Below, in pieces: positions 5,738 to 37,282 of a DNA stretch of 51,745 bases (position 1 is the first letter of the stretch; each line of letters opens with the position of its first letter). The position numbers and the translations under genes were made by a program. The notes beneath the pieces are model-generated. The model ran no database searches. It worked only from the letters and a program-made list of their open reading frames with translations, and was not told the DNA's origin. The stretch is taken from positions 1-51,745 of the IMG/VR virus record IMGVR_UViG_3300047565_000218, one strand, 5' to 3'. Source of the DNA: a virus. Its lineage: Duplodnaviria > Caudoviricetes.

Positions 5738-5941
5738 ATGCTCTTGAATTTAATAATTACAATAATTGTTGGTTGTATAATATTTATATTATGGGTATTA
5801 AAAGGAGTTTATACTTGCATAAGTACTATGGATCAATTAATAAAAAAACTTGCAAAAGTAACTGATCTTTTACACGATAGACTTTTAGATGTAGAAAAGG
5901 TAATAGTTGATCGAGAAAAAGTAAAAAAGAACAACGACTAG
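5738..5941 (+). CDS. Small membrane protein with coiled coil
   Basis: N-terminal hydrophobic helix; GAGGT RBS. Confidence 0.6.
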   Translation: MLLNLIITIIVGCIIFILWVLKGVYTCISTMDQLIKKLAKVTDLLHDRLLDVEKVIVDREKVKKNND

Positions 5942-6585: not shown

Positions 6586-6825
6586 ATGCACTTAATAAAT
6601 ATAGGAAATTCCAAAGGAATTAGATTATCAAAAAATATTATAAACAAATATCATTTTGAAGATGGTTTAGATTTAATAGAAAATGAAGAAGGGATACAGC
6701 TTATTCCTCTTAAAAAGAAGTTACGTAAAGGTTGGAATGAGTTTTTTTCAAAATATCATGATCAAGTTGACGTTGACTTAGAATTTCTTGAATTTGATAT
6801 TGAGCGTTGGTGTGAAGATATTTAA
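6586..6825 (+). CDS. mazE: AbrB/MazE-family antitoxin
   Basis: IGNSKGIRL AbrB motif, directly upstream of toxin. Confidence 0.85.
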   Translation: MHLINIGNSKGIRLSKNIINKYHFEDGLDLIENEEGIQLIPLKKKLRKGWNEFFSKYHDQVDVDLEFLEFDIERWCEDI

Positions 6826-7138
6826 GCAGTTTGATGTTTGGTTGGTAACTTTAAATCCTACTGTTGGTAGCGAAATGAGTAAAACTAGACCATGTGTAAT
6901 AATCTCTCCTAATGAAATGCACTGGTTAAATACTGTAATAATTGCTCCATTAACAACTAAAGGGGTAAAAGCTCCTACAAGAGTGTCGTTTATTTTAAAA
7001 GGAGTAGAAAATTCGGTTGCATTAGATCAGATCAGAACTGTAGATAAAACAAGGATGATAAAGAAACTTGATACTATTCATTCTTCTACACAGAAAAATA
7101 TATCTAACGTTTTAATAGAAATGTTTTCGTTAGAGTAA
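6812..7138 (+). CDS. mazF: MazF/PemK endoribonuclease toxin
   Basis: LNPTVGSEMSKTRPCVIIS, IIAPLTT, LDQIRTVDK; likely GTG start at 6812. Confidence 0.92.
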   Translation: MKIFKQFDVWLVTLNPTVGSEMSKTRPCVIISPNEMHWLNTVIIAPLTTKGVKAPTRVSFILKGVENSVALDQIRTVDKTRMIKKLDTIHSSTQKNISNVLIEMFSLE

Positions 7139-13958: not shown

Positions 13959-14170
13959 ACCGAAATAACATTTATAGCCGAGGCTCTTTTACCTCCGGCT
14001 TTATAGGAAGTATTGAAGCTGAGATTGATAGATACAGGCGCATTTTAAGTAATCCGGCATCAATTTCTACGCTAGAGGATTACAAATATCATGTGGGATT
14101 AATTGAGGGACTTGAGAGTTCCCTTGAACTCTTTAACAGGCACATAATAGAGGTAAATAACAATGATTAA
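13955..14170 (+). CDS. Head-module hypothetical protein
   Basis: GGAGG RBS; EDYKYHVGLIEGL; sits before groES-like gene. Confidence 0.75.
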   Translation: MNRNNIYSRGSFTSGFIGSIEAEIDRYRRILSNPASISTLEDYKYHVGLIEGLESSLELFNRHIIEVNNND

Positions 14171-14591
14171 CCATGAAATAGCCAATTACAAACCGGAAGA
14201 TTTTAAAACCAAAGGAATTGATCTGGAAGCTTTTAATAAGGAAGCAATGATAGAGAGATTTAAAGAGGTGTCAGTTACCGGAATCAATGTATTAATTCTT
14301 ATTTACAAACCGCCTGTTGAAGAGGTTACAAGAGGAGGAATTATAAAACCGCCAAGCGCCGTCCAAGATGATCTGGAATATAATTCAATGGTTGGAATGG
14401 TATTAAAGCTTGGCCCCGATAGTTATAAAGGTGATCAGTTTCCAAGCGGTCCTTATGTCAAAGCTGGAGACTGGGTTATATTCCCCCGTGGTTCATCATT
14501 GCAGTCAAAATATGAGGGTGAGCCGATAATTATGGTAGAGGATTTTAAAATCAAGCTACTAGTTGATAATCCATCAAAAGTATCAAGGTAA
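14163..14591 (+). CDS. groES: GroES-like co-chaperonin
   Basis: EEVTRGGII, VGMVLKLGPDSY, VKAGDWVIF. Confidence 0.8.
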   Translation: MINHEIANYKPEDFKTKGIDLEAFNKEAMIERFKEVSVTGINVLILIYKPPVEEVTRGGIIKPPSAVQDDLEYNSMVGMVLKLGPDSYKGDQFPSGPYVKAGDWVIFPRGSSLQSKYEGEPIIMVEDFKIKLLVDNPSKVSR

Positions 14592-17209: not shown

Positions 17210-17506
17210 ATGAAAAGATTAAGCATAGATATACCGAATGAATTACACCATATGTTAAAAGTTCATACTTCTTATAAAGAGTGTAAAATAAAAGATTTTG
17301 TTACAAAGGCAATTCAAAACAAAATAAAGCTTGAACAACAAGTACATATATCAAAAAATATTCCTAATGCAGAGACTATTAAAACTTTTGAAGAATCAGA
17401 TCAAGGAATTGGTATTACAAGTTTTAATTCTAAAGAAGATTTTTTTAAACATCTTGATAAATTACAGATGGAAGTAGAACAAGAATTAGTTAAAGAAAAT
17501 AAATGA
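17210..17506 (+). CDS. RHH antitoxin (DinJ/RelB-like)
   Basis: MKRLSIDIPNELH RHH and IPNAETIKT; precedes YafQ. Confidence 0.8.
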   Translation: MKRLSIDIPNELHHMLKVHTSYKECKIKDFVTKAIQNKIKLEQQVHISKNIPNAETIKTFEESDQGIGITSFNSKEDFFKHLDKLQMEVEQELVKENK

Positions 17507-17796
17507 ATATTAATATAATTTCTACTACTAAATTTGACAAAGAATTTAAATTGTCTCTAAGACGAGGTAAAAAGAAAGAGAATTTAGATAAGATTATAAA
17601 TTTATTGTTGGATAATATTAATAAGGGTATAGAACCTCATTTATTGCTTCCAACTAAATACAAATTACATAAATTATCTGGTAAGTATGTAAATCATTGG
17701 GAATGTCATATAGAACCTGATTGGCTACTTGTATATTATTTAGATGATGAAGTGCTTAGACTAGAACGAACCGGTACTCATAGCGATATTTTTTAA
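17503..17796 (+). CDS. yafQ: YafQ-family mRNA interferase
   Basis: HKLSG..WECHIEPDWLLVY..LERTGTHSDIF. Confidence 0.92.
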   Translation: MNINIISTTKFDKEFKLSLRRGKKKENLDKIINLLLDNINKGIEPHLLLPTKYKLHKLSGKYVNHWECHIEPDWLLVYYLDDEVLRLERTGTHSDIF

Positions 17797-19155: not shown

Positions 19156-20088
19156 ATGTCTATTATAACAACTGGTGATATTCCAAGTCTGCTTTGGCCA
19201 GGTCTTTATGAGGTAAAATCTCAGTATGATCGGTTTAAGGGCGAATACACTAAAATTTACGAACAATCTAATTCCGTCAAACATACTGAAAGGATGGTTG
19301 ATATTAGAGGAACAGGCTACGCTCTTGAGAAAACCCAAGGTGCTCCTATTAAAATGGATAGCATGGCTGAGCGGTTTATTTATGAATTTGTCCATCGGGA
19401 ATTTGCCCTCGGTTTTCAGATTACTAATATTGCCATGGAAGATGATCTTTATGCCGATCAGTTCTTTAATGGTACAAAATCTCTTACTACTTCCTATGAA
19501 CAAACCAGAGAAGTAGTAGCTATGAATCCTTTTAACCAAGCGTTTAACACATCAGCGGTTCAAGCCAATGGACAACCTCTTTGTTCTCCTGCGCAACCTT
19601 ACGATGGTGGTGTTTATTCTAATCAAGTTGCTTTTACTCCTGGCGGTCCTGTTGTTAATGTCGACTTTAGTGAGGCAGGAGTTGAACAGGCAGTAATTCT
19701 TGCTGGTAAAATGAAAGATCAGGCAGGACTGCTAATTAATGCTCAAATTGATAGATTGTTACTCCCACAAGATTTAATGTTCTCGGGTTGCCGGTTACTT
19801 GAATCTGTATTTAGAACAGGGACTGCTAACAATGACATAAATGCAATTTATAACATGAAAGCTATTCCAAATGGTTATGAAATAAGTCATTTCTTAACAA
19901 GTCCTAGTAACTGGTTTGGATTAACTAACGTTAAGGGAACACGTAAACATTTTGTAAGGCGCCCACTTAAAGTAAACGTAACAACCGATCCCGTAACTGA
20001 CACCATGTCAGTACTTGCATCTGGTCGTTATTCTTTTGGTATGTTTACTCCTCTTGGGGTAATTGGTGCAACAGGATCAACCGCTTAA
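19156..20088 (+). CDS. Major capsid protein
   Basis: LLWPGL, FALGFQIT..MEDDLY, RTGTANNDINA, RYSFG motifs; 310 aa. Confidence 0.9.
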   Translation: MSIITTGDIPSLLWPGLYEVKSQYDRFKGEYTKIYEQSNSVKHTERMVDIRGTGYALEKTQGAPIKMDSMAERFIYEFVHREFALGFQITNIAMEDDLYADQFFNGTKSLTTSYEQTREVVAMNPFNQAFNTSAVQANGQPLCSPAQPYDGGVYSNQVAFTPGGPVVNVDFSEAGVEQAVILAGKMKDQAGLLINAQIDRLLLPQDLMFSGCRLLESVFRTGTANNDINAIYNMKAIPNGYEISHFLTSPSNWFGLTNVKGTRKHFVRRPLKVNVTTDPVTDTMSVLASGRYSFGMFTPLGVIGATGSTA

Positions 20089-21018: not shown

Positions 21019-22089
21019 ATGCCAGCGACTAGTGGAAGTTACAGCTTTAGTAACATAAAAGGAGAGCTGATTATCAGAAAGGCTTATGAGTTAATCGGCA
21101 TGCCTCTTAGCATGGTAACTGCCGAGCAATATAATTCAGCACTTAATATTATCAATTTTATTTTAAGTGATTGGGCTAACTCTAACGTTAATTTATGGAC
21201 ACTAAAGTTAAATCCTGTTTTTTTAACTCCAGGGCAAGCATCCTACCCTTTGCCAAGCAACATTACTAAAATATTTCAGGTATTCTTAAGAAGCAACGTA
21301 AGACAATTAAATGGAACACCGCAATCAAATACTGCAAATACTTATGATGGAAACGGTAAAGGAATTGCTGCTTATGCTTTTGATGGTAATCCACTGACAA
21401 GATGTACACAAGACGTTCAAAACGGCAATATTTCTTATGATTACGGTTTAGGGGTAACAAAGCAAATCAGCATTATCGGCATTCAAAGTTATGTTTCTAA
21501 TCGTCCATATAGCTTAGTTTTAGAAGCATCACAAGATACGGTTACTTGGTTTAATGTCTTTACTCTTCCTGCTTCATATTCATATACGGCTAATATAGTT
21601 GCATGGTTTTATGTACCTGATCCAATTTATGCAAGGGCATATAGAATTAGAGAAACAGGCGGGTACACACTTGATATTGAAGAACTTTATTTTAATAGTA
21701 TAAGCCAGGATACTACCATGAGTGAAGTATCTAGATATGAATATTTAACCTATCCAAATAAATCGCAAATCGGTAGACCTACTATTTACTACGTTGACTA
21801 CCAGCGGACTCCGTCTTTGTATATATGGCAGACTGCTGCTCCAATGTATAATTTAATAATGTATAGCGGTCAAAGTAGTATAGAAACGCTAGAGAATTAC
21901 ACGCAAAGTATTGATATTCCGTCATATTTTTATACTCCTCTAATATATGGGCTAGCCAGCATGCTAGCAGCACAATACGCTCCTGAAAAAGAAGAAGGCT
22001 TAAAAATGAGATATCAGGAAACTTTAAATCCGGCAGTGATTAATAATACAACGGAAGTACCGCTTAAACTGGAGGTATATGGCAACTAG
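21019..22089 (+). CDS. Head-tail adaptor with inserted discoidin/F5-8C-like domain
   Basis: TSGSYSF..WANSNVNLWT..YPNKSQIGRPT frame; insert has AFDGN, LEASQD..W, ARAYRI. Confidence 0.65.
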   Translation: MPATSGSYSFSNIKGELIIRKAYELIGMPLSMVTAEQYNSALNIINFILSDWANSNVNLWTLKLNPVFLTPGQASYPLPSNITKIFQVFLRSNVRQLNGTPQSNTANTYDGNGKGIAAYAFDGNPLTRCTQDVQNGNISYDYGLGVTKQISIIGIQSYVSNRPYSLVLEASQDTVTWFNVFTLPASYSYTANIVAWFYVPDPIYARAYRIRETGGYTLDIEELYFNSISQDTTMSEVSRYEYLTYPNKSQIGRPTIYYVDYQRTPSLYIWQTAAPMYNLIMYSGQSSIETLENYTQSIDIPSYFYTPLIYGLASMLAAQYAPEKEEGLKMRYQETLNPAVINNTTEVPLKLEVYGN

Positions 22090-22516
22090 TTTAAAGAACA
22101 CTCCTGTAAATACTCAACTTGGAGAATACGTTAAAAAGAACGTAATCGAACCCGTTGGAGTTTGTGATTATTCAGGGTTTTTCTTTAGCAGGTCTGATCT
22201 AGTTAAGCAACGTGAATGGCGAGGGAATCAATTAGTCTGGACAGGAGCAATAGTTGGGCGACCTTTTGTTGATGAGCCAAATGAGCAGAATAGGCCACCG
22301 CAAATAAAAGGTGATCCGAAAGCCGTACAAAATCCTCGCCCCTTTGGGATAGAGACACCTCAAGGTCCTGAGGTTAGTGGTAATACTTCGCCGTTAATAC
22401 TAGAAAATGTAAGTTTTACTACCGAAGAAGCTGTACCAAATTTACCTGATTTTGCAGGAGAAGATATCAGTGGAATAAGTGCTGATGCACGTTTGAAACT
22501 GCTGGAGAATATTTAA
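22079..22516 (+). CDS. Neck-region hypothetical protein
   Basis: GVCDYSGF, DPKAVQNPRP motifs; coupled ORF. Confidence 0.65.
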   Translation: MATSLKNTPVNTQLGEYVKKNVIEPVGVCDYSGFFFSRSDLVKQREWRGNQLVWTGAIVGRPFVDEPNEQNRPPQIKGDPKAVQNPRPFGIETPQGPEVSGNTSPLILENVSFTTEEAVPNLPDFAGEDISGISADARLKLLENI

Positions 22517-25227
22517 TGGCCGACAATTTTAATCCTGGGTTTGACAGAGAAAAAAAAGCTTTTATAGATTTAGCTAATAGAGGTGAAGGACTCGCTCCAA
22601 TTAACTATTTATTTGCCGATGAAGCTAATTTTGAAAGTGTGCTGGCTTCTTATGTAACAGGAGGAATGTTTGATGTTAATATGCTCTACGCTACTGCTAT
22701 CGAAGCAAAAAATATTATTACTACAACAATAACAGCTGATACAGCTTATATTGATACAATTTATGTCAATAAAATTGAAATAAAAAAAGCTTATGTTGAT
22801 TATCTGTACGCTGATCATGTCATGATTTACGATGATTTAACAGTAGGAAAAGATGATAGAGCCGATGCTATCTTTTATACTAGTGAGTTTAAAGTAGATT
22901 CTGGGGTTGTCCATTTTGATACAATGAATACATCACATATAGGCGATATAGTTGATTTTTCAATTAAGTCGAATAGGTTTGATTTACTAACGACTACTTT
23001 TGTGGGGATAGAATCACCAGCGATAACTTTAGGATCTGAAGCTCTTTTACTATCAGCTCCGTTCGGAACTTTGTCGATTAATGCTCCTATAATATCAATT
23101 AATGTTCTTGAATCTACAGTAGTGCCTACTGGAATTATAACTATGTATAGTGGTGGAGGTATTACAATTTCCTCTCCTATTATAAGCATAGGAAGTGGGA
23201 GTGCTCTACCTCTAGCTCGTCCTCGTCTGTTAGAACTTTATTCTCAGGGGATAATAAATATCGATGCTCGTAATCTAATAAGTATCGTATCAAATGATGT
23301 AACTAACATTCGTGCTATGACATCTCTGTCTTTAACATCAGCTGCTACTATAGAGATTCTAGGTGATGAACTAATAACAATAGAGGCTGAAGAAGGGGTA
23401 ATAAATATTAGAGCACCAGAAACGAGTATTACCGGTACTGAAATATTAAATCTGCTATCGCCTCTAGAGATACACATAGGATCTCCTGAGACAGAAATAC
23501 TAACAGCTAGAGCAGTAACAACGACTATTACTGCTACTACAGTATTAAATCTGCTATCGTCTCTAGATATAAAGATAGAAGCTCCACAAGGAACAATAAC
23601 AGCTACATCCCTACTAACAACTATTACTGGTACTGAAATATTAAGGCTACTATCGCCTCTAGAGATACACATAGGATCTCCTGAGACAGAAATACTAACG
23701 GCTAGCGCAGCAACAACATCTATCACTGGTACTACGCTATTAAATCTATTGTCAGATACAGAGCTAAATATTCGTTCTAACGCCGCACTAACAGCTAGAG
23801 GAGTAACAACAACTATTACTGGTACTACATTATTAAATCTATTGTCAGATGTAGATGTTAGAATAAGATCAGATACAAATGTAAGCGCTATAGCACCATA
23901 TACATCTATCACCGGTACTACCTCATTAAGTCTAACATCAGAGACAAGAATAACAGCTACAACACCAGAAATGAATATTACCGGAAATGATTTGTTAAGT
24001 TTGAGGTCGGTAAAGGAAATAAATGTTCAAGCAGCAAAAGTAAATATCGGTGGTAATTATATATTGTTAAGAGCCGTCCAAGCAATAGCTATAGATTCTG
24101 ATCAGAACTTGTCTGTTAGAGGACAAAATGCACTTATCACTGGGACTGATTTGTTAGGTTTTAAATCAGAGGGGAAAATAACGGGTACTGCTCCAGAGAT
24201 AAATATTACTGGTACTGATTTGTTATCTCTAAACTCAGAGACAGAGATAAAAGCTACAGCAGCAGAAACATCTATTACCGGTACTACGCTATTGGAACTG
24301 TTATCAACGGCAGAGATAAAAGCTAGAGCAACCAGAACATCTATAACGGGTACTGATTTGTTAAATCTATTGTCAGATGGAGAGATAAACTTAACATCTG
24401 AAGCAAGAATAAATGCTAGAGCTGGTACGGAATTACATCTAGACGGAAGTGAGCTGATAAGCATAGCAACTGCCGAGGCATTAAGAGGGGCAGGAAAAAC
24501 AATAATTATCGGTGCTACTGAGCTATTAGAGTTGAGATCAACTAAGACAACAACTATTACTGGTACTGAAGTATTAAATCTGAAATCAATTCGAGACATA
24601 AACTTAACATCTGAAGCAAGAATAAATGCTAGAGCTGGTACGGAATTACATCTAGACGGAAGTGAGCTGATAAGCATAGTAACTGCCGAGGCATTAAGAG
24701 GGGCAGGAAAAACAATAAGTATCGGTGCTACTGAGCTATTAGAGTTGAGATCAACTAAGACAACAACTATCACTGGTACTGAAGTATTAAATCTGAAATC
24801 AATTCGAGACATAAACTTAACATCTGAAGCAAGAATAAATGCTAGAGCACCAGAAACGAGTATTACCAGTACTACGGTATTAAATCTGAAATCAGAAGCA
24901 AAGATAAATATTGAGGCTGTTGAAGAAGCTAAGATGCAGGCAGAAAAAGTTAATATTAATGGTTTCACAGAAATTAATATGGATGCAGATAAGGTTAGTA
25001 TAAGGGCTAGGCAGAATATCACTATTGAGTCTATAGATGGTAGAATATCTTTAATCTCTCCAGGCACTTTAGTTCCTAGCATCGAAGTCATGGAAGGAGA
25101 TGGAGATTTAAATTGTGCTGTCGGGCCGGTGGTAGGAGTTATTACTTTTGAATTACCTAATATGGTACAGTGTATAGAAGGCGTTTTAAAAACGGTTGAT
25201 ATTACAGTTGTTTGTCCTGTAGAATAG
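22516..25227 (+). CDS. Long gp5/VgrG-C-like beta-helix repeat protein (putative needle/spike)
   Basis: Hundreds of residues of ~8-aa alternating repeats (TSITGTELLNLxS). Confidence 0.65.
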   Translation: MADNFNPGFDREKKAFIDLANRGEGLAPINYLFADEANFESVLASYVTGGMFDVNMLYATAIEAKNIITTTITADTAYIDTIYVNKIEIKKAYVDYLYADHVMIYDDLTVGKDDRADAIFYTSEFKVDSGVVHFDTMNTSHIGDIVDFSIKSNRFDLLTTTFVGIESPAITLGSEALLLSAPFGTLSINAPIISINVLESTVVPTGIITMYSGGGITISSPIISIGSGSALPLARPRLLELYSQGIINIDARNLISIVSNDVTNIRAMTSLSLTSAATIEILGDELITIEAEEGVINIRAPETSITGTEILNLLSPLEIHIGSPETEILTARAVTTTITATTVLNLLSSLDIKIEAPQGTITATSLLTTITGTEILRLLSPLEIHIGSPETEILTASAATTSITGTTLLNLLSDTELNIRSNAALTARGVTTTITGTTLLNLLSDVDVRIRSDTNVSAIAPYTSITGTTSLSLTSETRITATTPEMNITGNDLLSLRSVKEINVQAAKVNIGGNYILLRAVQAIAIDSDQNLSVRGQNALITGTDLLGFKSEGKITGTAPEINITGTDLLSLNSETEIKATAAETSITGTTLLELLSTAEIKARATRTSITGTDLLNLLSDGEINLTSEARINARAGTELHLDGSELISIATAEALRGAGKTIIIGATELLELRSTKTTTITGTEVLNLKSIRDINLTSEARINARAGTELHLDGSELISIVTAEALRGAGKTISIGATELLELRSTKTTTITGTEVLNLKSIRDINLTSEARINARAPETSITSTTVLNLKSEAKINIEAVEEAKMQAEKVNINGFTEINMDADKVSIRARQNITIESIDGRISLISPGTLVPSIEVMEGDGDLNCAVGPVVGVITFELPNMVQCIEGVLKTVDITVVCPVE
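24385..24848 (+). repeat. 213-bp in-frame tandem repeat (~2.2 copies)
   Basis: ataaacttaacatctgaagcaag at 24385, 24598, 24811. Confidence 0.95.
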
Positions 25228-25237
25228 TTGTTATCCT

Positions 25238-26332
25238 ATGAAAACAATACGTATTTTATCTTTAGATGGTGGTGGTATTAGAGGATTGTTTAGTGCTACA
25301 TTTTTAGAAAGATTTTGCAGTGATGCTGGAATTGATGGTAGTAAATTATGGGACTATTTTGATGTTATTTGTGGAACAAGTATTGGCGGGATAGGTGCTA
25401 TAGCCTATGCATATGGTTTATCTCCTACTAAATTCATTAAATTATTAAAAGATAATGCCGAAGATATTTTTACTATTAGATCAGCAATTTATCCAATCAC
25501 AACTCTTGGTCCTGCAGGACCTACTACTTTAGGGATTGTACTAGCAGCTCCGCTATATGATCCTTATATTTACGATTCAGGACCTCTGCGAAAGGTGATA
25601 AGTTCTATTGTAAAAGATACTAAAATGTTTCAATTAAAAACTAATACTTTAGTAACGGCTGTAGGGTTTCAAGGAGGAACCAAAAGTGATGATCTTGTTT
25701 TTCCTTATGGCGATCTTACAAATAGCCAGTATTATCAATTTTCTAATGTCTCAATTCCTAGTTTTACTAGCGGACAAAATTGTAAATGTGTTGATATTGG
25801 TGTTGCTACAGCTGCGGCACCGGTATTTTTCCCTCCGACTACTATTCCAGGATTACCTTCCAATCCTGATACCCCTACCTATTTTATTGACGGAGGTTTA
25901 TATCAAAATAATCCAACCGCCCTTGGTTATGCATTTTCTAATATGTTATTCCCTGGAGATTTTAAAGTTTGTATTCTTTCAGTCGGTACAGGTTATTCTA
26001 TGCCTGATGTCGAAGTAAGTACATCGTCAGATAATTTAAAAGTAGCTCCTAATAATGGATTAAGTTTACTTGGCAATTGTACGGATTTAACCTTAAATGG
26101 GGCAACAGATGCAGTAGAGCGTCAATTTCAAATCATGTCTCTATATAAAGGTGCAACAAATAATTTATTTTACTATAGATTCCAGCGTTTGCTTAAGGAT
26201 AAAGAATTAAGTAAACTCGATAATCCTACCCCAGAAGCTATAACATATTTACAATCTCAGGCAAACCTTCAATATGCCCAAGATGCCATAAAAATACAGG
26301 CTTTTATTCAAAAGTGTAATTTTTCAAATTAG
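25238..26332 (+). CDS. Patatin-like phospholipase
   Basis: LSLDGGGIRG, GTSIG, AAAPVFFPP, DGG all intact. Confidence 0.95.
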   Translation: MKTIRILSLDGGGIRGLFSATFLERFCSDAGIDGSKLWDYFDVICGTSIGGIGAIAYAYGLSPTKFIKLLKDNAEDIFTIRSAIYPITTLGPAGPTTLGIVLAAPLYDPYIYDSGPLRKVISSIVKDTKMFQLKTNTLVTAVGFQGGTKSDDLVFPYGDLTNSQYYQFSNVSIPSFTSGQNCKCVDIGVATAAAPVFFPPTTIPGLPSNPDTPTYFIDGGLYQNNPTALGYAFSNMLFPGDFKVCILSVGTGYSMPDVEVSTSSDNLKVAPNNGLSLLGNCTDLTLNGATDAVERQFQIMSLYKGATNNLFYYRFQRLLKDKELSKLDNPTPEAITYLQSQANLQYAQDAIKIQAFIQKCNFSN

Positions 26333-26380: not shown

Positions 26381-26417
26381 ACGATTTTTCAGAGATGAAA
26401 ATAATCTGTGTTATAAT
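26381..26417 (+). promoter_or_regulatory. Putative late promoter 2
   Basis: ACGA-N22-TGTGTTATAAT. Confidence 0.6.
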
Positions 26418-26436
26418 AAAAGAAAAAGAAAAAATT

Positions 26437-26886
26437 ATGTCAGATTTATCAAATATTACTCAGTTTAGCGGCATTACTATTACTAGCGATCAAACAACCG
26501 GCACTAATAATCCTAACGCTACTTTTACAGTTGCAAATCTTACTCAAGAACAAATTAAGAATCTTCAAAATGTTACTAAGTACCAAATAAATAACACAGG
26601 GAATTTTTATACAGTAAAGCCTGGAACTATGGTTTTTAATATTACTTCTAATGTCTTTCAAATCTTTATTAATGGACAGTGGCAAAATCTATTTTCGGTA
26701 AATACAACTGCTAAGGGATCCGGTCTTACTAACGGAGCACCTCTTGTGTATCCATCAGGTACAGCAGAAAGTGTTGAGGGAAACGATAAGGGTAATGAGG
26801 TGGCAGGATTTACTTATTATGCAACAGATACTAATACTCTAAAATATTACAATGGTACTGCCTGGAAAACAGTTAGTACAGTTTGA
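26437..26886 (+). CDS. Small fibre-related protein
   Basis: Shares ITQxSGxxI and GTMxFN..W motifs with the next gene; ends YYNGTAWK. Confidence 0.6.
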   Translation: MSDLSNITQFSGITITSDQTTGTNNPNATFTVANLTQEQIKNLQNVTKYQINNTGNFYTVKPGTMVFNITSNVFQIFINGQWQNLFSVNTTAKGSGLTNGAPLVYPSGTAESVEGNDKGNEVAGFTYYATDTNTLKYYNGTAWKTVSTV

Positions 26887-26926: not shown

Positions 26927-29900
26927 ATGCCAATAGATAAAGGAACTACATTACCAATTACTCAGTTAAGCGGATTACAGATTAATTATAAGGATTCTAA
27001 CAGTTGTTTTAATCTACCGATTATGACAACAGACGAGAGGGATGCTTTAATTAATACTAATGATCCAGCAAATCGCATTAAAAATGGAACGATGATATTT
27101 AACAGTGATAATAACCTTGTTCAATATTATCAAATCAAAAATGGAGTAGGAGTATGGATATCCGTAGCGAAAGGAGCTGGTACAGGTGATGTAGTAGGTC
27201 CTAACTCTTCTACTACTGGCAATCTTGCTTCTTTTAGCAATGATAGTGGAAAAGAAATACAGGATAGTGGAATAAAGGTTGTACAAAAAGAAGATGCTGC
27301 TTCAATCCTTACTGATACTCCGTTATATGAACTTAGCAATTTAAAAATACTACACTTTGGCAATATAGATGTACCTGGGAGTATTGATACTGCTACTATA
27401 ATGATGGACGGATTTACTCCTATTACTTTTCAAACTCAAAAATTATCTCCTGCAGAAGAAATAATCTGTTCTGTATTTAATGGTGAACTAGGTGCTGGTT
27501 CATCTTCCCCATCTGCTATTCTTGAAATTAATTCAACTGTTGGAGCATTTCTAAATGCTCGTCTGAATATTGCTCAAAGAGATGCTTTAGTTAGTCCGCA
27601 AGATGGTATGTTAATATTCAATACTGAAAGCAAAACTCTTGAATCCCGACAAAATGGAGAGTGGATAACTTTGGGAACGGGTAATGGAGATGGAACAGTT
27701 ACAGCAGTTGGTTTAATCAATAACGATAGTAACTTAACCATCACTGGTAGTCCTGTTACTGAAGCAGGAGATATTGAGGTTAATTTAAAGCCACAATTAG
27801 CTATAAAAACCATTACTTTAAATAATACAAACAATCATGGTTATACATTAAGCTCTCCAGCTAGTTTAGCACAGAACCTTACATTAACATTACCGGATAA
27901 TTCTGGCACAGCAGGACAAATACTCTCTACTGACGGAAAGGGCAATACTAGCTGGGTAAATGATATCGCTGGGGGTACTGTTACTTCTGTCGGTCTAACA
28001 AACACTGATAGTAACTTAACCATCACTGGTGGTCCTGTTACACAAGCTGGGAATATTGAAGTTGATCTAAAATCACAAATAGTCTTAAAGACTGTTACTT
28101 TAAATAATACAAGTGGTTATGGCTATACATTAAGTTCTCCTGTAGGACTTGGTAGTAGCATAAACTTTACACTTCCAACTAGTTCTGGAATTAAGGGACA
28201 AATACTCTCTACTGACGGACAAGGTAATACTAGTTGGGTTGCTGATATAGCTGGGGGTACTGTTACTTCTGTCAGTCTAACAAACACTGATAGTAACTTA
28301 ACCATCACCGGTGGTCCTGTTACACAAGCTGGGAATATCGAAGTTGATCTAAAATCACAAATAGTCTTAAAGACTATTACTTTAAATAACTTAAATAATT
28401 ATGGTTATACATTAGCTTCACCAGCGGGATTAAATAGTAACAAAAGCTTTGTATTACCTTCTACTAGTGGAATATCAGGACAAATACTTTCTACCGACGG
28501 ACAAGGTAATACTAACTGGGTTGATGATATTGCTGGGGGTACTGTTACTTCTGTAGGCCTAACCAACACTGATAGTAACCTGACTATTACCGGTAGCCCT
28601 GTTACTACCTCGGGTAATATCGCAGTTAATTTAAATCCAATACTTAACGGAATAACTTCAGTTAATTTAGCTAATAACGGTAAAGCTATTAGTTTAAGTG
28701 CTCCGTTAGGATTAAGTAACAACCTAACTTTTGTATTACCCGGTACTAACGGAACAGTTGGACAAATACTCTCTACTGACGGAAAGGGTAATACTAGCTG
28801 GGTTAATGATATTGCCGGCGGTACTGTTACTTCTGTCGGTCTAACAAACACCGATAGTAACTTAACCATCACTGGTGGTCCTGTTACACAAGCTGGGAAT
28901 ATTGCTGTGAATTTAAAACCGCAATTAGCTATAAAAAGCGTTACTTTAAATAATACTAATAATTATGGTTATACATTAAGCTCTCCTAATGGTCTTGGTA
29001 GTAATTTAAATTTTACACTTCCAACTAGCTCAGGAATTAAAGGTCAGATACTCTCTACTGATGGACAAGGTAATACTAACTGGGTTGATGATATTGCTGG
29101 CGGTACTGTTACCTCTGTCGGTCTAACAAACACCGATAGTAACCTGACCATCACTGGTAGTCCTGTTACTACCTCGGGCAATATTGCTGTGAATTTAAAT
29201 AAAAATCTTAATAATATTAATACTTTAAATTTAAGTAATAGTAACAATAAAGCTATTAGTTTAAGTGCTTCATCAGCATTAAGTAGTAACTTAAATTTTG
29301 TATTACCTAGCACTATCGGAACATCAGGGCAAGTACTCTCTACGGATGGACAAGGGAATACTAGTTGGGTTAATAACACAGGAGGAAGCGGCACTGTTAC
29401 TTCTGTAGGCCTAACCAACACCGACAACAACTTAACCATTACGGGTAGTCCTGTTACTACATCAGGTAGTATCTCTGTGCAGTTGAGTAAAGCATTAACA
29501 ATTACTACACTAAATACTAATAATGTGAACGCTGATTCAGTTGAGTCTAATGTAATTTTGGGTAACTATCTTACTATATCCAAAGCAATACAATTCCCCG
29601 GATCTGGTGGTAATAATGTATCCTTTTCAGGACCTACTACGATTCCTTCTTCTGGGACTAATTTTGTTTTACCTAACACTAACGGAACGGCTGGTTATGT
29701 ATTATCTACCGACGGAAAGGGTAATACTAGTTGGATAACTACAGCTTCTGCTAATAGTACTTATTTACTTACTCAAGCCGATGCAAGTCTTCCAAAAGCA
29801 ACAGTATTACCAGTGATAAATTCTAATGACAACTTAGGAATAGGTTATCAAGCTTTAAATGTTATAGATTCTAAGTCTTCAAATAATACTGCAATTGGTT

Positions 29901-30541
29901 CTCAAGCATTCTCAAAATTAACGAGTAGTAAGCAAAATAATACTGCATTAGGATACCAAGCCGGTTTTAACCAATCATCGTATGGAAATTGCACTTTTTT
30001 AGGTGCTAATGCAGATGCTAGTGTATCAGGTTTAACAAATGCAATTGCGATAGGTTATAATGCAAAAGTTTCGCAAAGTAATTCGATAGTATTGGGTGCT
30101 GTATATGGAACAATTGGAAGTTGTACTGTGGGAATCGGAACTACAGCTCCAAGATATCCGTTACATATAGCGAATAGTAATACTTCCTTAAGCCTGAACA
30201 GTGCTATTGGTTTGAATGAGACAAGTAATAATCCTCCCCCTCCTTCAGGAGCAAATGATATCGCTATTTTTGCAAAAAAGGGAAATGATTATGGGGCTAT
30301 GTATATGATCAATAGCAAAGGATCAATTTACAAATTTGATAGCACTAATATATCTGCACCAGCATCAGAACCTAAAATCCCAGTATTAACTGCTGACGAA
30401 ATCCAGAATCTTCAAGAAATCGCCCTTGGTGCGATTGTTTATGATAGTACAAACGATACAGTTATTATTAGTACTAAAAGCGGATGGCAAAATTTAACTC
30501 GTAGCCTATATAATCCTCAAAGTGTAAGTGCTGAAATATGA
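26927..30541 (+). CDS. Long repeat-containing tail fibre
   Basis: 94-aa repeats (GTVTSVGLTNTDSNLT...GQILSTDGxGNTxW); YadA-head-like NTAIG/AIAIG repeats near the C-terminus. Confidence 0.8.
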   Translation: MPIDKGTTLPITQLSGLQINYKDSNSCFNLPIMTTDERDALINTNDPANRIKNGTMIFNSDNNLVQYYQIKNGVGVWISVAKGAGTGDVVGPNSSTTGNLASFSNDSGKEIQDSGIKVVQKEDAASILTDTPLYELSNLKILHFGNIDVPGSIDTATIMMDGFTPITFQTQKLSPAEEIICSVFNGELGAGSSSPSAILEINSTVGAFLNARLNIAQRDALVSPQDGMLIFNTESKTLESRQNGEWITLGTGNGDGTVTAVGLINNDSNLTITGSPVTEAGDIEVNLKPQLAIKTITLNNTNNHGYTLSSPASLAQNLTLTLPDNSGTAGQILSTDGKGNTSWVNDIAGGTVTSVGLTNTDSNLTITGGPVTQAGNIEVDLKSQIVLKTVTLNNTSGYGYTLSSPVGLGSSINFTLPTSSGIKGQILSTDGQGNTSWVADIAGGTVTSVSLTNTDSNLTITGGPVTQAGNIEVDLKSQIVLKTITLNNLNNYGYTLASPAGLNSNKSFVLPSTSGISGQILSTDGQGNTNWVDDIAGGTVTSVGLTNTDSNLTITGSPVTTSGNIAVNLNPILNGITSVNLANNGKAISLSAPLGLSNNLTFVLPGTNGTVGQILSTDGKGNTSWVNDIAGGTVTSVGLTNTDSNLTITGGPVTQAGNIAVNLKPQLAIKSVTLNNTNNYGYTLSSPNGLGSNLNFTLPTSSGIKGQILSTDGQGNTNWVDDIAGGTVTSVGLTNTDSNLTITGSPVTTSGNIAVNLNKNLNNINTLNLSNSNNKAISLSASSALSSNLNFVLPSTIGTSGQVLSTDGQGNTSWVNNTGGSGTVTSVGLTNTDNNLTITGSPVTTSGSISVQLSKALTITTLNTNNVNADSVESNVILGNYLTISKAIQFPGSGGNNVSFSGPTTIPSSGTNFVLPNTNGTAGYVLSTDGKGNTSWITTASANSTYLLTQADASLPKATVLPVINSNDNLGIGYQALNVIDSKSSNNTAIGSQAFSKLTSSKQNNTALGYQAGFNQSSYGNCTFLGANADASVSGLTNAIAIGYNAKVSQSNSIVLGAVYGTIGSCTVGIGTTAPRYPLHIANSNTSLSLNSAIGLNETSNNPPPPSGANDIAIFAKKGNDYGAMYMINSKGSIYKFDSTNISAPASEPKIPVLTADEIQNLQEIALGAIVYDSTNDTVIISTKSGWQNLTRSLYNPQSVSAEI
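27689..29470 (+). repeat. 282-bp in-frame tandem repeat array
   Basis: Unit starts at about 27689, 27971, 28253, 28535, 28817, 29099, 29387. Confidence 0.9.
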
Positions 30542-32115
30542 GAAAAAACAAGAAAACTAAAATAAAAATGATTACTTCAGATAATAGTTTTAATGCTATG
30601 ACTGATAATCTTGTTGCATTTAATGATGAACAGGGAGTTACTTTAAAAAATACAAATATTAGTTCTACAAATCTTGTAACCTCTATAGAAGAAGGGATTG
30701 ACAGGCGAATTGCTATATTTGAAGGAAACTCCAAAAACATAAAAGACGGAGGCTTAAGTATAGCTGAAGTTATAGCAAATATTCCTACTACTTATCTTTC
30801 TTCAATAGAACAATATATCGTACAAGATAAAGACGTAATGATAATTGCTGCAAATAGTATGCAAATCATTTTACCTCCCGTTGCTTCTAATATAAATCGT
30901 CAATTAATTTTGAAATATCAAGAGAATCAAAGTCAAGAAATCACCATCAACGCTGTCGGCCTTGATAGTATAGATGGAACTCAAACAGTAATTCTAAATG
31001 GTAGTGGATACTTGCATCTGGTTGCTTCTAATGCCGGTGATAACAGATGGCATGTTATTTCTTCTTCTATTAACGAGGAAAATCCTAATCCGGTCTTTGA
31101 AACTATCACTTGTACAGAAAGCCCTTCTTCATTGCAAGATACTACTATTAACGGGTTGCTTACAGCAAATGATATTTCTTGTAATGGTAATGGCATATTT
31201 AATTCTATCCATAGCATAGGAAACATTACCAGTAATCAACTTGGATTATCTGGAAATAATAACAGTTATTTAGTTATAGCTGCTAATCCTAATCAAGAAC
31301 AAAACCTAACATTAACCTATCCAGATACTTTAGGAACATCAGGGCAAGTACTCTCTACGGATGGACAGGGTAATACTAGTTGGGTTAATAACGGAGGAGG
31401 CGGAGGGGGAAGCGGCACTGTTACTTCTGTCGGTCTAACAAACACTGATAGTAACTTAACCATCACTGGTAGTCCTGTTACTACCTCAGGGAATATTGCT
31501 GTGAATTTAAGTGATAATATCACTGCTAAACTCGGGACTTTTGATTATCTTGAAAGTAACTCAACAATCGTTAAAGGTCAGGTAATAGCAGATGACTTTA
31601 TTACTGATGGAGGTTTTGTAGCTGAAGGTACAGTTTCAGCAGGTACTCTAGTATCAAAAGGAGACATTACTGCTGCTAGCGATGTAACTAGTCTGCGTCT
31701 AAATTTGAATGTTAATGATACTACTCATTTAACATTAGAGCCAAACATTGCTCAAAAAAATAATTTAACACTGATTTTACCTCCAAATGCAGGAGAAGCT
31801 AATCAAGTTCTAAGTACTGACGGTTATGGAAATTTGGCTTGGGTAGATACTAATATTGTAATCAATAATTCTACTACAGGAAAAAGTACCCTAAATGGTA
31901 CTACTGGAGTCGTTATTAAAACATCAGCAATTACTACAAACTCTATAGTAAGCGTTACAAGAAATGCGGGACTGGGAATCCCGCAAGTTGTAAATAAAAC
32001 AGGAAATTTAACAGTAGGATCAATTATTAATGAAATATCTTTTACAGTCTACTCAACCACTGAAAACGATACAGATAACTTTGACTGGTTCATTTTAAAT
32101 CCTAAAATTTTATAA
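30538..32115 (+). CDS. Second tail fibre
   Basis: Contains one copy of the same repeat module; distinct C-terminus. Confidence 0.75.
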   Translation: MRKNKKTKIKMITSDNSFNAMTDNLVAFNDEQGVTLKNTNISSTNLVTSIEEGIDRRIAIFEGNSKNIKDGGLSIAEVIANIPTTYLSSIEQYIVQDKDVMIIAANSMQIILPPVASNINRQLILKYQENQSQEITINAVGLDSIDGTQTVILNGSGYLHLVASNAGDNRWHVISSSINEENPNPVFETITCTESPSSLQDTTINGLLTANDISCNGNGIFNSIHSIGNITSNQLGLSGNNNSYLVIAANPNQEQNLTLTYPDTLGTSGQVLSTDGQGNTSWVNNGGGGGGSGTVTSVGLTNTDSNLTITGSPVTTSGNIAVNLSDNITAKLGTFDYLESNSTIVKGQVIADDFITDGGFVAEGTVSAGTLVSKGDITAASDVTSLRLNLNVNDTTHLTLEPNIAQKNNLTLILPPNAGEANQVLSTDGYGNLAWVDTNIVINNSTTGKSTLNGTTGVVIKTSAITTNSIVSVTRNAGLGIPQVVNKTGNLTVGSIINEISFTVYSTTENDTDNFDWFILNPKIL

Positions 32116-32163
32116 ATCAAGGATTTAAGATATTTTTTAACATAATTTTATGAGGTTAATAAC

Positions 32164-32697
32164 ATGACTTTAAGTCAACTCATTACCACCATTGATATAG
32201 AATATAATAATATTGGTGTTGGTAATACTGTCGCTAGTGGTAGTTCAAATGCTGTAGCATTAGGTGATGGTCAAAATGTCGGTATCGGTACTGATAATCC
32301 ACTTGCTGGTTTACATATCGGCAATACCGAAAGTACTATCCCTGCTCTTTACTTAGCTGATGCTACTGGTAGTACTCTTCCAACTGTTGCTGCAGGTGAT
32401 GGTATATTTTCTGCTATGGATGGTGTACCTACTTTTACTGATAGCACCAGTTCTAAAACTCTTTTTACTGTTAGCAGTGATAATGTTGGTATTGGTACAT
32501 TAACCGATGGAACTGTAATAGTAGAAGCACCAATAGTTACTACATCTTCAAGAATTTCTTTAACTAGAACTGGAGATATTAACGATGTAGCAAGTATCGG
32601 TACTTTAAGCGCTGTTGCAAGCGCAGGCTCTTTTACAGTTAATTCAACTGTAGCAACCGATGTCGGCAGTTTTATATACTTTGTAATTAATATTTAA
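32164..32697 (+). CDS. Small fibre-tip-like protein
   Basis: NVGIGTDNP; C-terminal SFTVNST..D matches the previous gene's C-terminus. Confidence 0.6.
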   Translation: MTLSQLITTIDIEYNNIGVGNTVASGSSNAVALGDGQNVGIGTDNPLAGLHIGNTESTIPALYLADATGSTLPTVAAGDGIFSAMDGVPTFTDSTSSKTLFTVSSDNVGIGTLTDGTVIVEAPIVTTSSRISLTRTGDINDVASIGTLSAVASAGSFTVNSTVATDVGSFIYFVINI

Positions 32698-32770: not shown

Positions 32771-32821
32771 TATAACTAATTCACGAAAATATTAAATAGA
32801 AACTTGTGTTTGGTTGATTTT

Positions 32822-33493
32822 ATGATGAATTATCAGAATCTTACTGCTCAGATAATAGCTTATGCCAATAGAGGAGGTAGCATTGAATTTGCTGCCGCTA
32901 TTCCTTACTTTATTGAGATGGCTCAGCAGAAAATCTGGAAGGAGTTAAATACCACAGGTTTTCAAAAAACTACACAGCTTAAAAAGTTTCAGGTAAATAA
33001 TGCCACTATTGAAAAATCTGCCGATTGGCAGGAAACCATCTCAATAATTTATGGTTCGAAAGATAACTTTTTTATCAATAACGTTGTCCTGTTTCCTAGA
33101 AGTTACGAGTTCTGTATAAATTACTGGCCAAACGTTAATTCAAGCGATCCTGCTAATCCTCCCCTCTTTTACTCAGATTATCAACCGGGACAAGAAAACG
33201 TAAGTCCTTATAAATATTATTTGATCGTTCCAACCCCGGATAAAGAATATAATTACCAAATAACCTACATAGGAAAACCTAATTTAATTACAACGACTAA
33301 TACAAACAACATACTAACAGACTATTACCCTGATCTTCTATTTTATGCCGCCTTTTTAGAGGCTCTTATTTATTTAAAGGATGATCAGAGAATGCCTGTC
33401 TATACAAAATTATATCAAGAAAGCTTAACGTCTGCTAATAATTTGACCAAAGATCGTTACATCGATCGCAGTGTAAAAAGAGATATAGGGTAA
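32822..33493 (+). CDS. Tail adaptor/tubular protein
   Basis: MNYQNL..IPYFIEMA..IVPTPD..YPDLLFYAAFLEA. Confidence 0.7.
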   Translation: MMNYQNLTAQIIAYANRGGSIEFAAAIPYFIEMAQQKIWKELNTTGFQKTTQLKKFQVNNATIEKSADWQETISIIYGSKDNFFINNVVLFPRSYEFCINYWPNVNSSDPANPPLFYSDYQPGQENVSPYKYYLIVPTPDKEYNYQITYIGKPNLITTTNTNNILTDYYPDLLFYAAFLEALIYLKDDQRMPVYTKLYQESLTSANNLTKDRYIDRSVKRDIG

Positions 33494-33496
33494 TTT

Positions 33497-35290
33497 ATGG
33501 CTACACAAAAACAGATATTTCCTATTACCTATAAGCCTGGGATACTCCGTGATGGTTCATTTTTTCAAGGAAGCTACTGCACGCGGGGGCAATGGGTAAG
33601 GTTTTTTAGAGGCCAACCCCAGAATATAGGCGGAATGAAAAATTATGTAATAAATCGATCCACAAAGCCTGAACTACTACCACCTAACTCTACTCCAACT
33701 GCAGCTCTTATATACTATGATAGTAACGGGAATAAACATATTTTAGTCGGGGTTTCTCTGAATAATAATGATGATGAATATAACGTAATAGATGCTACTT
33801 ATAGTAAGGATTCTCAAACCAACACTTATATTCAGAAATTCACTAATCCTACAAATATCTTGACACAATTTGTTGTAGTGATAAGTATTATTGACAATGT
33901 TAAAACAGAGCTAATATTGTGTTTAGGTATGAAAAATTACTTGAATATCAACAGTAGTGAAGCCATCGATACTATTTTTGGAAAATCCGCTATATATTAC
34001 CCTATAATAGAGGGACAACCAGATAAAAATAATTTTTTTAAATTAAATTTTAAAGCATCTCCAGTTCCAATTTATGCCGCTAATGGAACTATCAAGTCTT
34101 ATAAAGAGCCGAGACCTACAGAAGATGGTTTTATTTTTAAAGAAGCCACAGGGGGAATGCTTTACGTTGGAAATAGATTATTTTATTACGGCAACAATGG
34201 ACTTATTAGATGGTCTTCAGCCTCACAAGAGAAATCAAATAAAAAAACAAACTTGCAATGTCCGTTCTTATTTTTTGAAGATAAATATTCCATCAATATT
34301 AGCACCGATAAAGTAATCTACGGCGCAGAGTGGAGAGGAGGGGTAAATGCACCAACAATAATCTTCTGGACACTCAGCTCCGTTGTTCTTATTAGCAATA
34401 CTACAGGTAGCGATAATCAGATTATTGATGATCCTGATGACCTTTCTTTTAGCAAAAAGGTATTATCAAGGGATAGCTCCATTTTATCTTCAAATAGCGT
34501 AGTTGAATATGACGGAATATTCTATTGGCCTGGAACACAAAGATTTTTTGTATTCAACGGCGTAGTTCTTCCGCTTGAAAACAATCTTAATCGTCAGACT
34601 TTTTTTGATACTATTGATATGAGTAAGCGCCAAAAGGTCTTTGGCGTCAAAAACGTAAGCAGAGATGAAATATGGTGGTTCTACCCTGAAAAGGAGAAAG
34701 ATGCTAATGTTGGATGCACCAGAGCCGTTATTTACAATGTTGTAGATAATACCTGGTATGATACGGATATAGAAAGGGCAGCGGGTTATTTTGATAATAC
34801 TGGCGGTAACATGTATACTGTAGGAAAAAACCTGAGTCCTTACGAAGATGATAATAACAGTTATGTCTGGCAACATGAAGTCGGAAACGATCAGGTCAAT
34901 CTTTATAAAGCACCAGACCAGCAAACTAAAGCTATTCCTTCCTTCTTTACCACGCCGATAATTTCTTATGCTACCTTTAACCCACAAAAACAGGTGGCAG
35001 GAATTGATTACAACATAGGTATAGAGAGAATAGAGCCTAATATTGTCGGAACAAAAAAAATAAAGATGACTGTTAGTATCAATACGTATGAATATCCTGC
35101 AAGCACTCCTGTAACAGCTACTTATAACCTGACTGAGGATGGAGAAGTAGAGAATATTATTAGACCTGCTATTAATGAACGCAAACAAGGAAGAAACATT
35201 AATTTTACTTTCAAATCAGAAGGTATAGGTTCTGGTTACCAGATGGGAACTACCTTTGTTTTAGCTGAAATAGATGATGGTAGGGTATGA
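33497..35290 (+). CDS. Tail nozzle / DNA stabilisation protein
   Basis: KPGI..WVRF, EIWWFYP, AVIYNVVDNTWY, WQHEVG beta-propeller-like motifs. Confidence 0.7.
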   Translation: MATQKQIFPITYKPGILRDGSFFQGSYCTRGQWVRFFRGQPQNIGGMKNYVINRSTKPELLPPNSTPTAALIYYDSNGNKHILVGVSLNNNDDEYNVIDATYSKDSQTNTYIQKFTNPTNILTQFVVVISIIDNVKTELILCLGMKNYLNINSSEAIDTIFGKSAIYYPIIEGQPDKNNFFKLNFKASPVPIYAANGTIKSYKEPRPTEDGFIFKEATGGMLYVGNRLFYYGNNGLIRWSSASQEKSNKKTNLQCPFLFFEDKYSINISTDKVIYGAEWRGGVNAPTIIFWTLSSVVLISNTTGSDNQIIDDPDDLSFSKKVLSRDSSILSSNSVVEYDGIFYWPGTQRFFVFNGVVLPLENNLNRQTFFDTIDMSKRQKVFGVKNVSRDEIWWFYPEKEKDANVGCTRAVIYNVVDNTWYDTDIERAAGYFDNTGGNMYTVGKNLSPYEDDNNSYVWQHEVGNDQVNLYKAPDQQTKAIPSFFTTPIISYATFNPQKQVAGIDYNIGIERIEPNIVGTKKIKMTVSINTYEYPASTPVTATYNLTEDGEVENIIRPAINERKQGRNINFTFKSEGIGSGYQMGTTFVLAEIDDGRV

Positions 35291-35667: not shown

Positions 35668-35949
35668 TTACAAACCTAATTCACTATGAGAACCAAGACG
35701 CACTAGCTCCAAAATATTGTCATTAATTTTTCTATAAATTAGCACTAAATCAGGTTTGATATGACAATCCCTACAATCCTTAAAATTACCAATAAGAGGA
35801 TGATCATGCATTAGCTCTGGTAATGGGATATCTGTAATTAATAATTGCAATATTACGAATAGCTTATTATCAAGAGTTGCTCTATGCTTTCCACGTTTTT
35901 CACGTTTGTAATCACGCTTATATTGAGTACTTCGTTTAATCGTCCGCAT
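35668..35949 (-). CDS. yafQ: YafQ-family toxin
   Basis: DHPLIG..RDCHIKPDLVLIY..LVRLGSHSEL. Confidence 0.92.
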   Translation of the reverse strand: MRTIKRSTQYKRDYKREKRGKHRATLDNKLFVILQLLITDIPLPELMHDHPLIGNFKDCRDCHIKPDLVLIYRKINDNILELVRLGSHSELGL

Positions 35950-36199
35950 TTAATTCGGTAAATAAATCATCTAAAGTACCAATGCTAATTAACTCACCTC
36001 TTCTTGCCTCTTCTATAGCCTTTATTGTTGTAGCATTTGGTATAAGAGGTTCAAAAGGTAATGCTTTCTCACGAGCAACACGAATTAATAGCAACCGAAA
36101 CGCATCTGATAGTGTAAGGCCTATTTCAGACAACACAACAGCAGCTTCTTCTTTTATCTGTTCATTTATGCGAGCACGCACAATAGAATTATTAAGCAT
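35936..36199 (-). CDS. dinJ: DinJ/RelB antitoxin
   Basis: VRARI..IKEEA..GLTLSDAFRL..LPFE..PNATT; operator palindrome GCTACATTGTAGC at 36227-36239. Confidence 0.92.
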   Translation of the reverse strand: MLNNSIVRARINEQIKEEAAVVLSEIGLTLSDAFRLLLIRVAREKALPFEPLIPNATTIKAIEEARRGELISIGTLDDLFTELNADD

Positions 36200-37075: not shown

Positions 37076-37282
37076 TTAGTCTAAATGTCTGATATCAATA
37101 GCATATACCTTTTCGCCTTTAGTAGCTGGTGTATATTCGACTTTCTGATTCTTTTTAATTTCTTCTATACCAGATTTTATAAGATTGCTCTGATGAAAGA
37201 AGACATCTTTTGAGCCATCATCAGGTTTAATAAAACCATACTTGCTTTCGGTAGAATAAAATTTAACAACTCCTCTTTTCAT
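37076..37282 (-). CDS. cspA: Cold-shock domain protein
   Basis: GVVKFY, KYGFI (RNP1), DVFFH (RNP2). Confidence 0.92.
   Translation of the reverse strand: MKRGVVKFYSTESKYGFIKPDDGSKDVFFHQSNLIKSGIEEIKKNQKVEYTPATKGEKVYAIDIRHLD

Follow-up and report, generated by a model that had tools for sequence, protein, structure and literature searches.

Introduction

Each half of the gene pair considered here, a long phage spike followed by a patatin-like phospholipase, has a precedent: the beta-prism of the SU10 needle and the patatin of MAnkyphage, whose gene overlaps that of a tail fibre. [quoted passage not shown] Among podoviruses, the SU10 needle gp18 is reported to be trimeric and 26 nm long, with a long coiled coil and a C-terminal beta-prism like that of myovirus central spikes (PMC9509320), and a triple beta-helix capsid spike is reported for Pa223 (preprint 10.1101/2025.06.11.659172), so that a spike without a contractile tail has precedent. 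Here we describe 51,745 nucleotides of viral DNA (Duplodnaviria; Caudoviricetes; IMG/VR record IMGVR_UViG_3300047565_000218, positions 1 to 51,745, hereafter the window) in which an open reading frame (ORF) for a 903-residue spike protein is separated by 10 nt from one for a patatin. The spike protein is predicted to be a trimeric beta-helix of the gp5/VgrG type, as modelled for residues 651–903, and the patatin is a core gene of the window's Megaira phage family, retained across swaps of the neighbouring appendage body. In the portion of the literature searched, we found no description of this phage family or of a spike–patatin pair.

The window spike resembles T4 gp5 and VgrG (a Francisella-type VgrG, 6U9E) in its eight-residue strands, predicted i:i+8 triple-stranded winding, DUF2345 match and weak matches to VgrGs, and differs from them in having its own N-terminal anchor and tip; sheath and tube were not found. 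The spike works like the gp5/VgrG helix yet is not a VgrG, because a gp27 hub, an OB fold and PAAR are not found: scans of the spike protein with Pfam, PHROGs and NCBIfam gave no gp27-like hub or OB fold, and the 110 residues before the repeats are filled by the unrelated anchor. With a rise of 4.8 Å per beta-helix strand, the spike would reach up to ~44 nm if residues 112–850, of which the last third is modelled, are beta-helical throughout, as against the 11 nm of gp5C. Like Kuravirus SU10, the window phage is a podovirus with an SU10-type portal and adaptor, and the trimeric state of podovirus needles (P22 gp26, SU10 gp18, Pa223 gp58) is predicted for the C-terminal 253 residues of its spike. 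Unlike gp18, the window spike lacks a long coiled coil and can be exchanged for a fibre, and its gene lies 8 kb upstream of that for the hub, whereas gp18 is numbered next after the nozzle gene.

For the patatin, MAnkyphage_25.80 (OP381185) offers a Megaira podovirus in which a related patatin (25–29% identical) adjoins a fibre gene. Unlike the window, its patatin precedes the fibre gene, a lysozyme is annotated, and the capsid, tail, anchor, spike and tip of the window have no match there. Phage WO is likewise a phage of an intracellular Rickettsiales host with a patatin conserved beside tail genes (PMC9203015, PMC3173496, PMC5062602), for which a role in entry or exit has been proposed (PMC9203015, PMC3173496); it has baseplate and PAAR genes, and holin-like and ankyrin genes beside the patatin, none of which were found in the window. 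The E. coli VgrG1–Tle1 pair, as described (PMC10715212, PMC6960284), shares with the window a DUF2345 beta-helix, a small C-terminal domain and an adjoining phospholipase gene, but Tle1 is a phospholipase A1 (PLA1) that is loaded through a strand at its N terminus and relies on contraction for delivery, and the window has no such strand, no contraction and no fixed pairing.

A long spike predicted to be a trimeric beta-helix

A first reading made from the nucleotide sequence without database searches (the sequence-only reading) had described a very long ORF of spike-like eight-residue repeats, a description borne out over ~740 residues (112–850). Over residues 150–850, the autocorrelation of large hydrophobic residues is highest at lags 8 and 23 (z 6.6 and 6.5, respectively, against 300 shuffles); the lag-8 signal is weaker over residues 110–290 (z 2.5), and residues 40–110 have a period of 5, not 8. 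Within the repeat tract lie tandem duplications of 99 bp (3.3 copies), 69 bp (2.7 copies) and 213 bp (2.2 copies; 98% identity), which have lengthened it, the 213-bp duplication recently and the 99- and 69-bp arrays earlier. Homologues span 345–903 aa, the window protein being the longest found, and the spike had zero matches among 50,697 phage records.

Several comparisons relate the C-terminal part to gp5/VgrG spikes. DUF2345 matches residues 736–849 above the curated Pfam cut-off, and a profile of the C-terminal part weakly matches solved VgrGs in the PDB (E 0.007 and 0.009). Three copies of residues 651–903, when co-folded, scored 0.92 against 0.00 for the best of three controls, with at least 93% of contacts shared between runs and a predicted local distance difference test (pLDDT) of at least 93. 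The best inter-chain contacts join residue i to residue i+8 of the next chain, which is the gp5 winding; the last 55 residues have few confident inter-chain contacts. The trimeric gp5-like helix that had been proposed from the repeats is thus predicted for this part of the protein. In the ESM Atlas the C-terminal part reached at best 0.86 (0.82 for Gp5_C clusters) and the anchor 0.84, all below the 0.9 bar, so that these are leads only. For the homologue L030 (345 aa), AlphaFold2 gave a weak monomer model (mean pLDDT 64); a Foldseek search with it gave nothing in the PDB, and in BFVD one uncharacterised phage homologue.

The ends of the protein are of a different character. Residues 1–65 are likely a virion attachment domain. 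No known family was found for this anchor, a PDB sequence search with its profile gave no meaningful match, and it is modelled poorly (pLDDT under 50 in the monomer model of the homologue); the spike gene does not adjoin the hub gene. The tip had been noted for its three cysteines, which the window protein does contain (Cys867, Cys886 and Cys900, the only ones in the spike; the tip has no His). The feature is not conserved, however: among 20 distinct tips the Cys886 position is kept in 17, three cysteines occur in 3 and none in 2. Four of 14 profile matches were excluded from this count, three as unrelated repeat proteins (P0130, P0131, P0133) and one as truncated before the end of the tip (P0135). 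We accordingly rejected a conserved three-Cys metal site in the tip. A PDB sequence search with the tip profile gave nothing meaningful.

An intact patatin among fibre genes

The patatin, which had been read as intact, retains all catalytic motifs: an oxyanion loop (DGGGIRG, residues 10–16), a G-x-S-x-G nucleophile motif (GTSIG, with Ser48) and a DGG motif with the catalytic Asp218. Judged by these motifs it is a patatin-like phospholipase, and both Ser48 and Asp218 are invariant across a hand-chosen set of 27 aligned homologues. The protein begins at the first catalytic strand, with no signal peptide, extra domain or N-terminal extension. Its closest solved structures and named plasmid matches are phospholipases of the cyclic oligonucleotide-based antiphage signalling system (CBASS; E 1e-24, ~30% identity), and it scores 156 bits against NCBIfam CBASS_lipase, for which the cut-off is 200. 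A contig from another study covers positions 24819–26233 with 0 differences, and so the spike–patatin junction is not an assembly artefact. A promoter scan gave 35 sites against 39 expected, no signal over chance. The neighbouring genes are of fibre type; no holin-like or ankyrin genes lie beside the patatin, and the nearest small membrane-helix ORFs are ~19 kb off. One of these, 19 kb from the patatin at 5738–5941 (+), encodes 67 aa with one membrane helix at the N terminus, followed by a charged tail; by the criteria applied to phage WO, it is holin-like.

Patatins also stand beside fibre genes in other phage backbones. An alignment search for related patatins yielded 367 viral stretches, of which the best 80 were examined. 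Outside the window family, among the matches listed, the usual 3′ neighbour of the patatin is a fibre gene whose N-terminal motif is shared, the two mostly overlapping by 4 nt, and the gene found 5′ of the pair is a terminase, an ejection-type gene or again the marker gene (see below). Among the 50,697 phage records, the window patatin matched MAnkyphage alone, a Megaira podovirus with a patatin and 'tail Fiber' gene pair and also a lysozyme; the patatin is thus not a simple endolysin substitute in that phage. A homologous capsid protein is encoded in 19 phage records, none of which matched the patatin; their named hosts are free-living bacteria, several having no recorded host.

Conservation of the spike–patatin arrangement

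Relatives were gathered as 80 viral loci chosen by the upstream marker gene (homologues of 22079..22516) alone. Thirteen have a spike tip, 65 a coiled-coil body and none both, 2 being too short. In the coiled-coil type the same N-terminal anchor leads into an Ala-rich coiled-coil fibre, and more fibre genes come after it. Thirty-nine loci reach beyond the cassette, and a patatin is present in 38 of them (6/6 of the spike type and 32/33 of the coiled-coil type); the exception, L083, has an altered gene order past the cassette. All but two (L016 and L018) of the 38 patatins pass a catalytic-motif filter, and because the loci are redundant these 36 amount to 12 clusters at 95% identity. The spike lies directly 5′ of the patatin in three clusters (window-like, L088-like and L135), the patatins of which are 42–51% identical, and one fibre gene intervenes in three others. 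In all seven spike loci of the marker set with a patatin in view, the patatin lies within one gene. Conservation of the pair had been offered as a test of the sequence-only reading, and its outcome is divided: direct adjacency recurs in three lineages, but 33 of the 39 spanning loci have a coiled-coil body in place of the spike. A dedicated, VgrG-like pairing of spike and patatin, as that reading implied, is not supported, given a patatin that persists without the spike in 32 of these 39 loci, discordant similarities and the lack of a loading extension.

The similarities were compared at several levels. In a comparison of the window with L003, identity is 98% in the anchor region, 33–49% in the body, 92% in the last 108 residues and 98% in the patatin; the variability of the spike body would fit a host-contact appendage. 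In one contig the last 654 nt of the spike gene are replaced and the patatin is retained. L043 and L088 have patatins 89% and tips 52% identical, and for the window and L088 the figures are 54% between tips and 43% between patatins; with near-copies removed, patatin similarity does not track the tip (rho 0.24). The downstream gene was considered as a specific patatin carrier on the strength of rho 0.67–0.76 on 7 loci, which fell to 0.33 on 21, and no such claim is made. In a 40-row patatin tree, rooted at its midpoint and with L135 on a long branch, the label spike-adjacent needs three changes, and both patatin clades (~35% identical to each other) contain spike and coiled-coil loci. Separate long fibres are encoded in 6/6 spike-type loci versus 4/30 coiled-coil loci, which represent few independent lineages.

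Other features of these relatives were observed in passing. A gene of 124–162 aa with no known family (L004 6166–6624 and relatives) lies just 5′ of the patatin in nearly every coiled-coil-type locus and in no spike-type locus. L143 (367–1845) has a third type of body, with a diverged anchor, repeated Cys-containing terminal motifs and a patatin directly 3′. In the coiled-coil relatives L004 (3048–6209), L006, L010 and L011 a fibre knuckle motif appears to be split across consecutive ORFs, its first half (GMIRFNT) closing one ORF and its second opening the next, which suggests a chain-like fibre made from separate polypeptides. The coiled-coil bodies of L168 (9026–10696) and L004 (3048–4190) are 90% identical with differing N-terminal domains, and the capsid proteins of these two phages are ~30% identical to that of the window in one and 92% in the other; the fibre bodies appear to be the product of a recent cassette exchange.

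The phage and its likely host

Scans of the 54 window ORFs with Pfam and PHROGs recognised a terminase together with a portal and an adaptor of SU10 type. Families of sheath, tube, baseplate, tape-measure or PAAR proteins were not found. The absence of a contractile tail that had been noted at the outset agrees with these scans, and the podovirus-type adaptor and hub indicate that the tail is short and non-contractile. The match of the nozzle/hub-like protein (Table 1) is to a PDB chain, 9nwi_Y, of 513 residues, the length given for the Pa223 tail hub (preprint 10.1101/2025.06.11.659172).

Table 1. Positions of the spike, the patatin and associated genes in the window
Feature	Position	Strand	Basis or remark
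Major capsid protein	19156..20088	+	~93% identity to homologues from two closed plasmids of Ca. Megaera polyxenophila
Conserved structural gene	21019..22089	+	weak F5/8 (discoidin) match; library scan
Small conserved gene	22079..22516	+	patatin-independent marker for gathering relatives
Spike protein, 903 aa	22516..25227	+	anchor, 5-residue repeats, 8-residue-repeat tract, small beta tip
Anchor, residues 1–65	22516..22710	+	common to spike-type and coiled-coil-type relatives, mostly 55–67% identity
8-residue-repeat tract, ~740 aa (residues 112–850)	22849..25065	+	hypervariable
Tip, residues 851–903	25066..25224	+	~three beta-strands (homologue model)
Patatin-like phospholipase, 364 aa, intact	25238..26332	+	Pfam PF01734, E 5e-24
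Patatin catalytic codon, Ser48	25379-25381
Patatin catalytic codon, Asp218	25889-25891
Small fibre-type gene	26395..26886	+	usual 3′ neighbour of patatin in window phage family
Three more fibre-type genes (1204, 525, 177 aa)	26927..32697	+	weak YadA-head, K1-lyase C-terminal matches
SU10-type adaptor	32804-33493	+	Pfam PF24175
Nozzle/hub-like protein	33497-35290	+	PDB 9nwi_Y, E 1.7e-7; 8zkm_E nozzle, E 0.0011

The window capsid protein is 92.6–92.9% identical to its homologues on two closed plasmids of Candidatus (Ca.) Megaera polyxenophila. Both plasmids have the gene order of the window and a patatin 71–72% identical, with a coiled-coil body in place of the spike. Because of the capsid identity, gene order and patatin match, the window most likely represents a phage-plasmid of podovirus type from Megaira, an intracellular member of the Rickettsiales; the intracellular host that had been supposed is therefore likely of that order. 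Megaera is reported to live in the cytoplasm of protists (PMC13134042). A scan of genome collections also returned one 2.8-kb contig in a Saccharibacteria bin, which was left out of the host assignment.

The product of the conserved structural gene at 21019..22089 may be adaptor-like, by resemblance. Its discoidin (F5/8) insert differs between relatives. An entry role has been proposed for the discoidin–patatin fusions of polinton-like viruses (PMC12220804). Elsewhere in the window, a Gram-negative porin gene (8406–9680, −) lies head to head with the terminase, and the Megaera plasmid CP113869 has a porin at the same place; superinfection exclusion or host modification is a possible role. Three toxin–antitoxin pairs (6586–7138, 17210–17796 and 35668–36199) and a ParA module (4861–5702) are consistent with a plasmid prophage. 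The head module contains a gene for a GroES-like co-chaperonin (14163–14591), and a small ORF (37076–37282) resembles the gene that both Megaera plasmids have at this place, where it is annotated as cold-shock.

Discussion

We tentatively explain the locus as an exchangeable trimeric spike appendage beside a separate fibre-cassette patatin that would travel with the fibres of the particle and hydrolyse membrane lipid, an account that we hold to be somewhat short of probable. The anchor would attach one of two bodies to the short tail, a rigid beta-helix or a chain of coiled coil, making the spike an exchangeable host-contact appendage of a Megaira phage tail, and the patatin, as a separate and family-wide member of the fibre cassette, would be carried with the particle's fibres and act on membrane lipid while the phage reaches or leaves its intracellular host. 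We infer the virion location of spike and patatin and the role in membrane crossing. Travel of the patatin with the particle is favoured by its placement among fibre genes in several backbones. A role for the spike in penetration or as a spacer would fit the extra long fibres of spike-type loci, and a lateral fibre position would fit the distance of the spike gene from the hub gene.

Several points weigh against this account. Of the proteins solved as same-chain pairs, 20 of 30 attained the mark on the trimer score, as did 1 of 23 single-chain proteins; this calibration, made for two copies and other alignments, fits a three-copy run only roughly, and the score may stem from a resemblance to gp5/VgrG spikes of solved structure. 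The host assignment is one by similarity only. In one of the two patatin clades the spike-adjacent patatins are the first to branch, and so the spike–patatin arrangement may be old. Over 21 loci, patatin similarity weakly follows the anchor (rho 0.29) and the downstream gene (rho 0.33); these values are explicable by linkage alone, and no specific patatin carrier emerges from them. Finally, no endolysin or holin family was recognised among the 54 window ORFs or in the incomplete gene table of CP113869, which leaves room for a role of the patatin in lysis.

This last point leads to an explanation nearly as good as travel of the patatin with the virion, if still on the unlikely side: the spike is an ordinary exchangeable appendage, and the patatin a soluble late enzyme of lysis or egress that acts from inside on Megaira or protist membranes. 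Besides the unrecognised lysis genes, a protein devoid of signal peptide and extra domain would suit such a role, and the WO patatin beside the tail module has been proposed to belong to a lytic cassette (PMC9203015, PMC3173496). The window patatin, however, has no adjoining holin-like or ankyrin gene, MAnkyphage has a lysozyme as well as a patatin, and the patatin is placed among fibre genes, with a 4-nt fibre-gene overlap in other backbones. An explanation closer to the sequence-only reading would load the patatin on the spike, for example at the tip, as Tle1 is on the transthyretin-like domain of VgrG, with the pair breaching protist vacuolar membranes. The small beta domain after the DUF2345 match recalls VgrG1, direct adjacency is found in three lineages, the patatin is never more than one gene from the spike in the seven loci where both are in view, and the separate long fibres of spike-type loci fit a spike for which receptor binding is not the main task. 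Set against this are the prevalence of coiled-coil bodies among the spanning loci, nearly all of them with a patatin, the discordance of tip and patatin similarities (L043/L088 and window/L088), the contig that swaps the 3′ end of the spike and retains its patatin, and the lack of a Tle1-like N-terminal strand and of a contractile drive. We therefore regard loading as improbable and the tip as not likely to be an obligatory patatin carrier. Equally improbable is the fuller scenario in which a non-contractile, VgrG-like spike of up to 44 nm, loaded with phospholipase, frees the phage from a protist food vacuole to reach cytoplasmic Megaira, and, jointly with it, that such a eukaryote-entry device was ancestral in the family and later re-housed on coiled-coil fibres.

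Two further explanations fare less well. As a lysogenic-conversion gene of a plasmid prophage, it would supply an extra Pat1-like effector for escape of Megaira from vacuoles; relatives do persist as closed Megaera plasmids, and Pat1 of Rickettsia parkeri is reported to mediate escape from host vacuoles (PMC9237051). Its position inside a structural operon, 10 nt from the spike and with a promoter signal at the level of chance, argues otherwise, as does a core patatin reported to be present in Megaera already (PMC13134042), and we consider this quite improbable. More improbable still is a CapV-like abortive-infection effector directed against competing phages. The closest solved structures and named plasmid matches point to CBASS phospholipases, but the score lies below the NCBIfam CBASS_lipase cut-off, the Pfam scan of the window contains no cyclase (CD-NTase) family, and the gene keeps a constant position among fibre genes.

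In sum, what is new in an exchangeable spike and a separate fibre-cassette patatin is a long spike without hub or PAAR that occupies an exchangeable slot, and a patatin that belongs to the core of a Megaira phage family. How a phage passes through the eukaryotic cell that surrounds an obligate intracellular host is an open question, and in phage WO the leading candidate since 2011 has been patatin. With the window spike, the range of the gp5/VgrG helix comes to include a podovirus appendage that has no hub and varies in length. Closed plasmid-prophage relatives occur in cultured Megaera–protist systems, and since an intact patatin is kept among the fibre genes while the appendage beside it is swapped, the family is suited to separating a role in entry from a role in exit.

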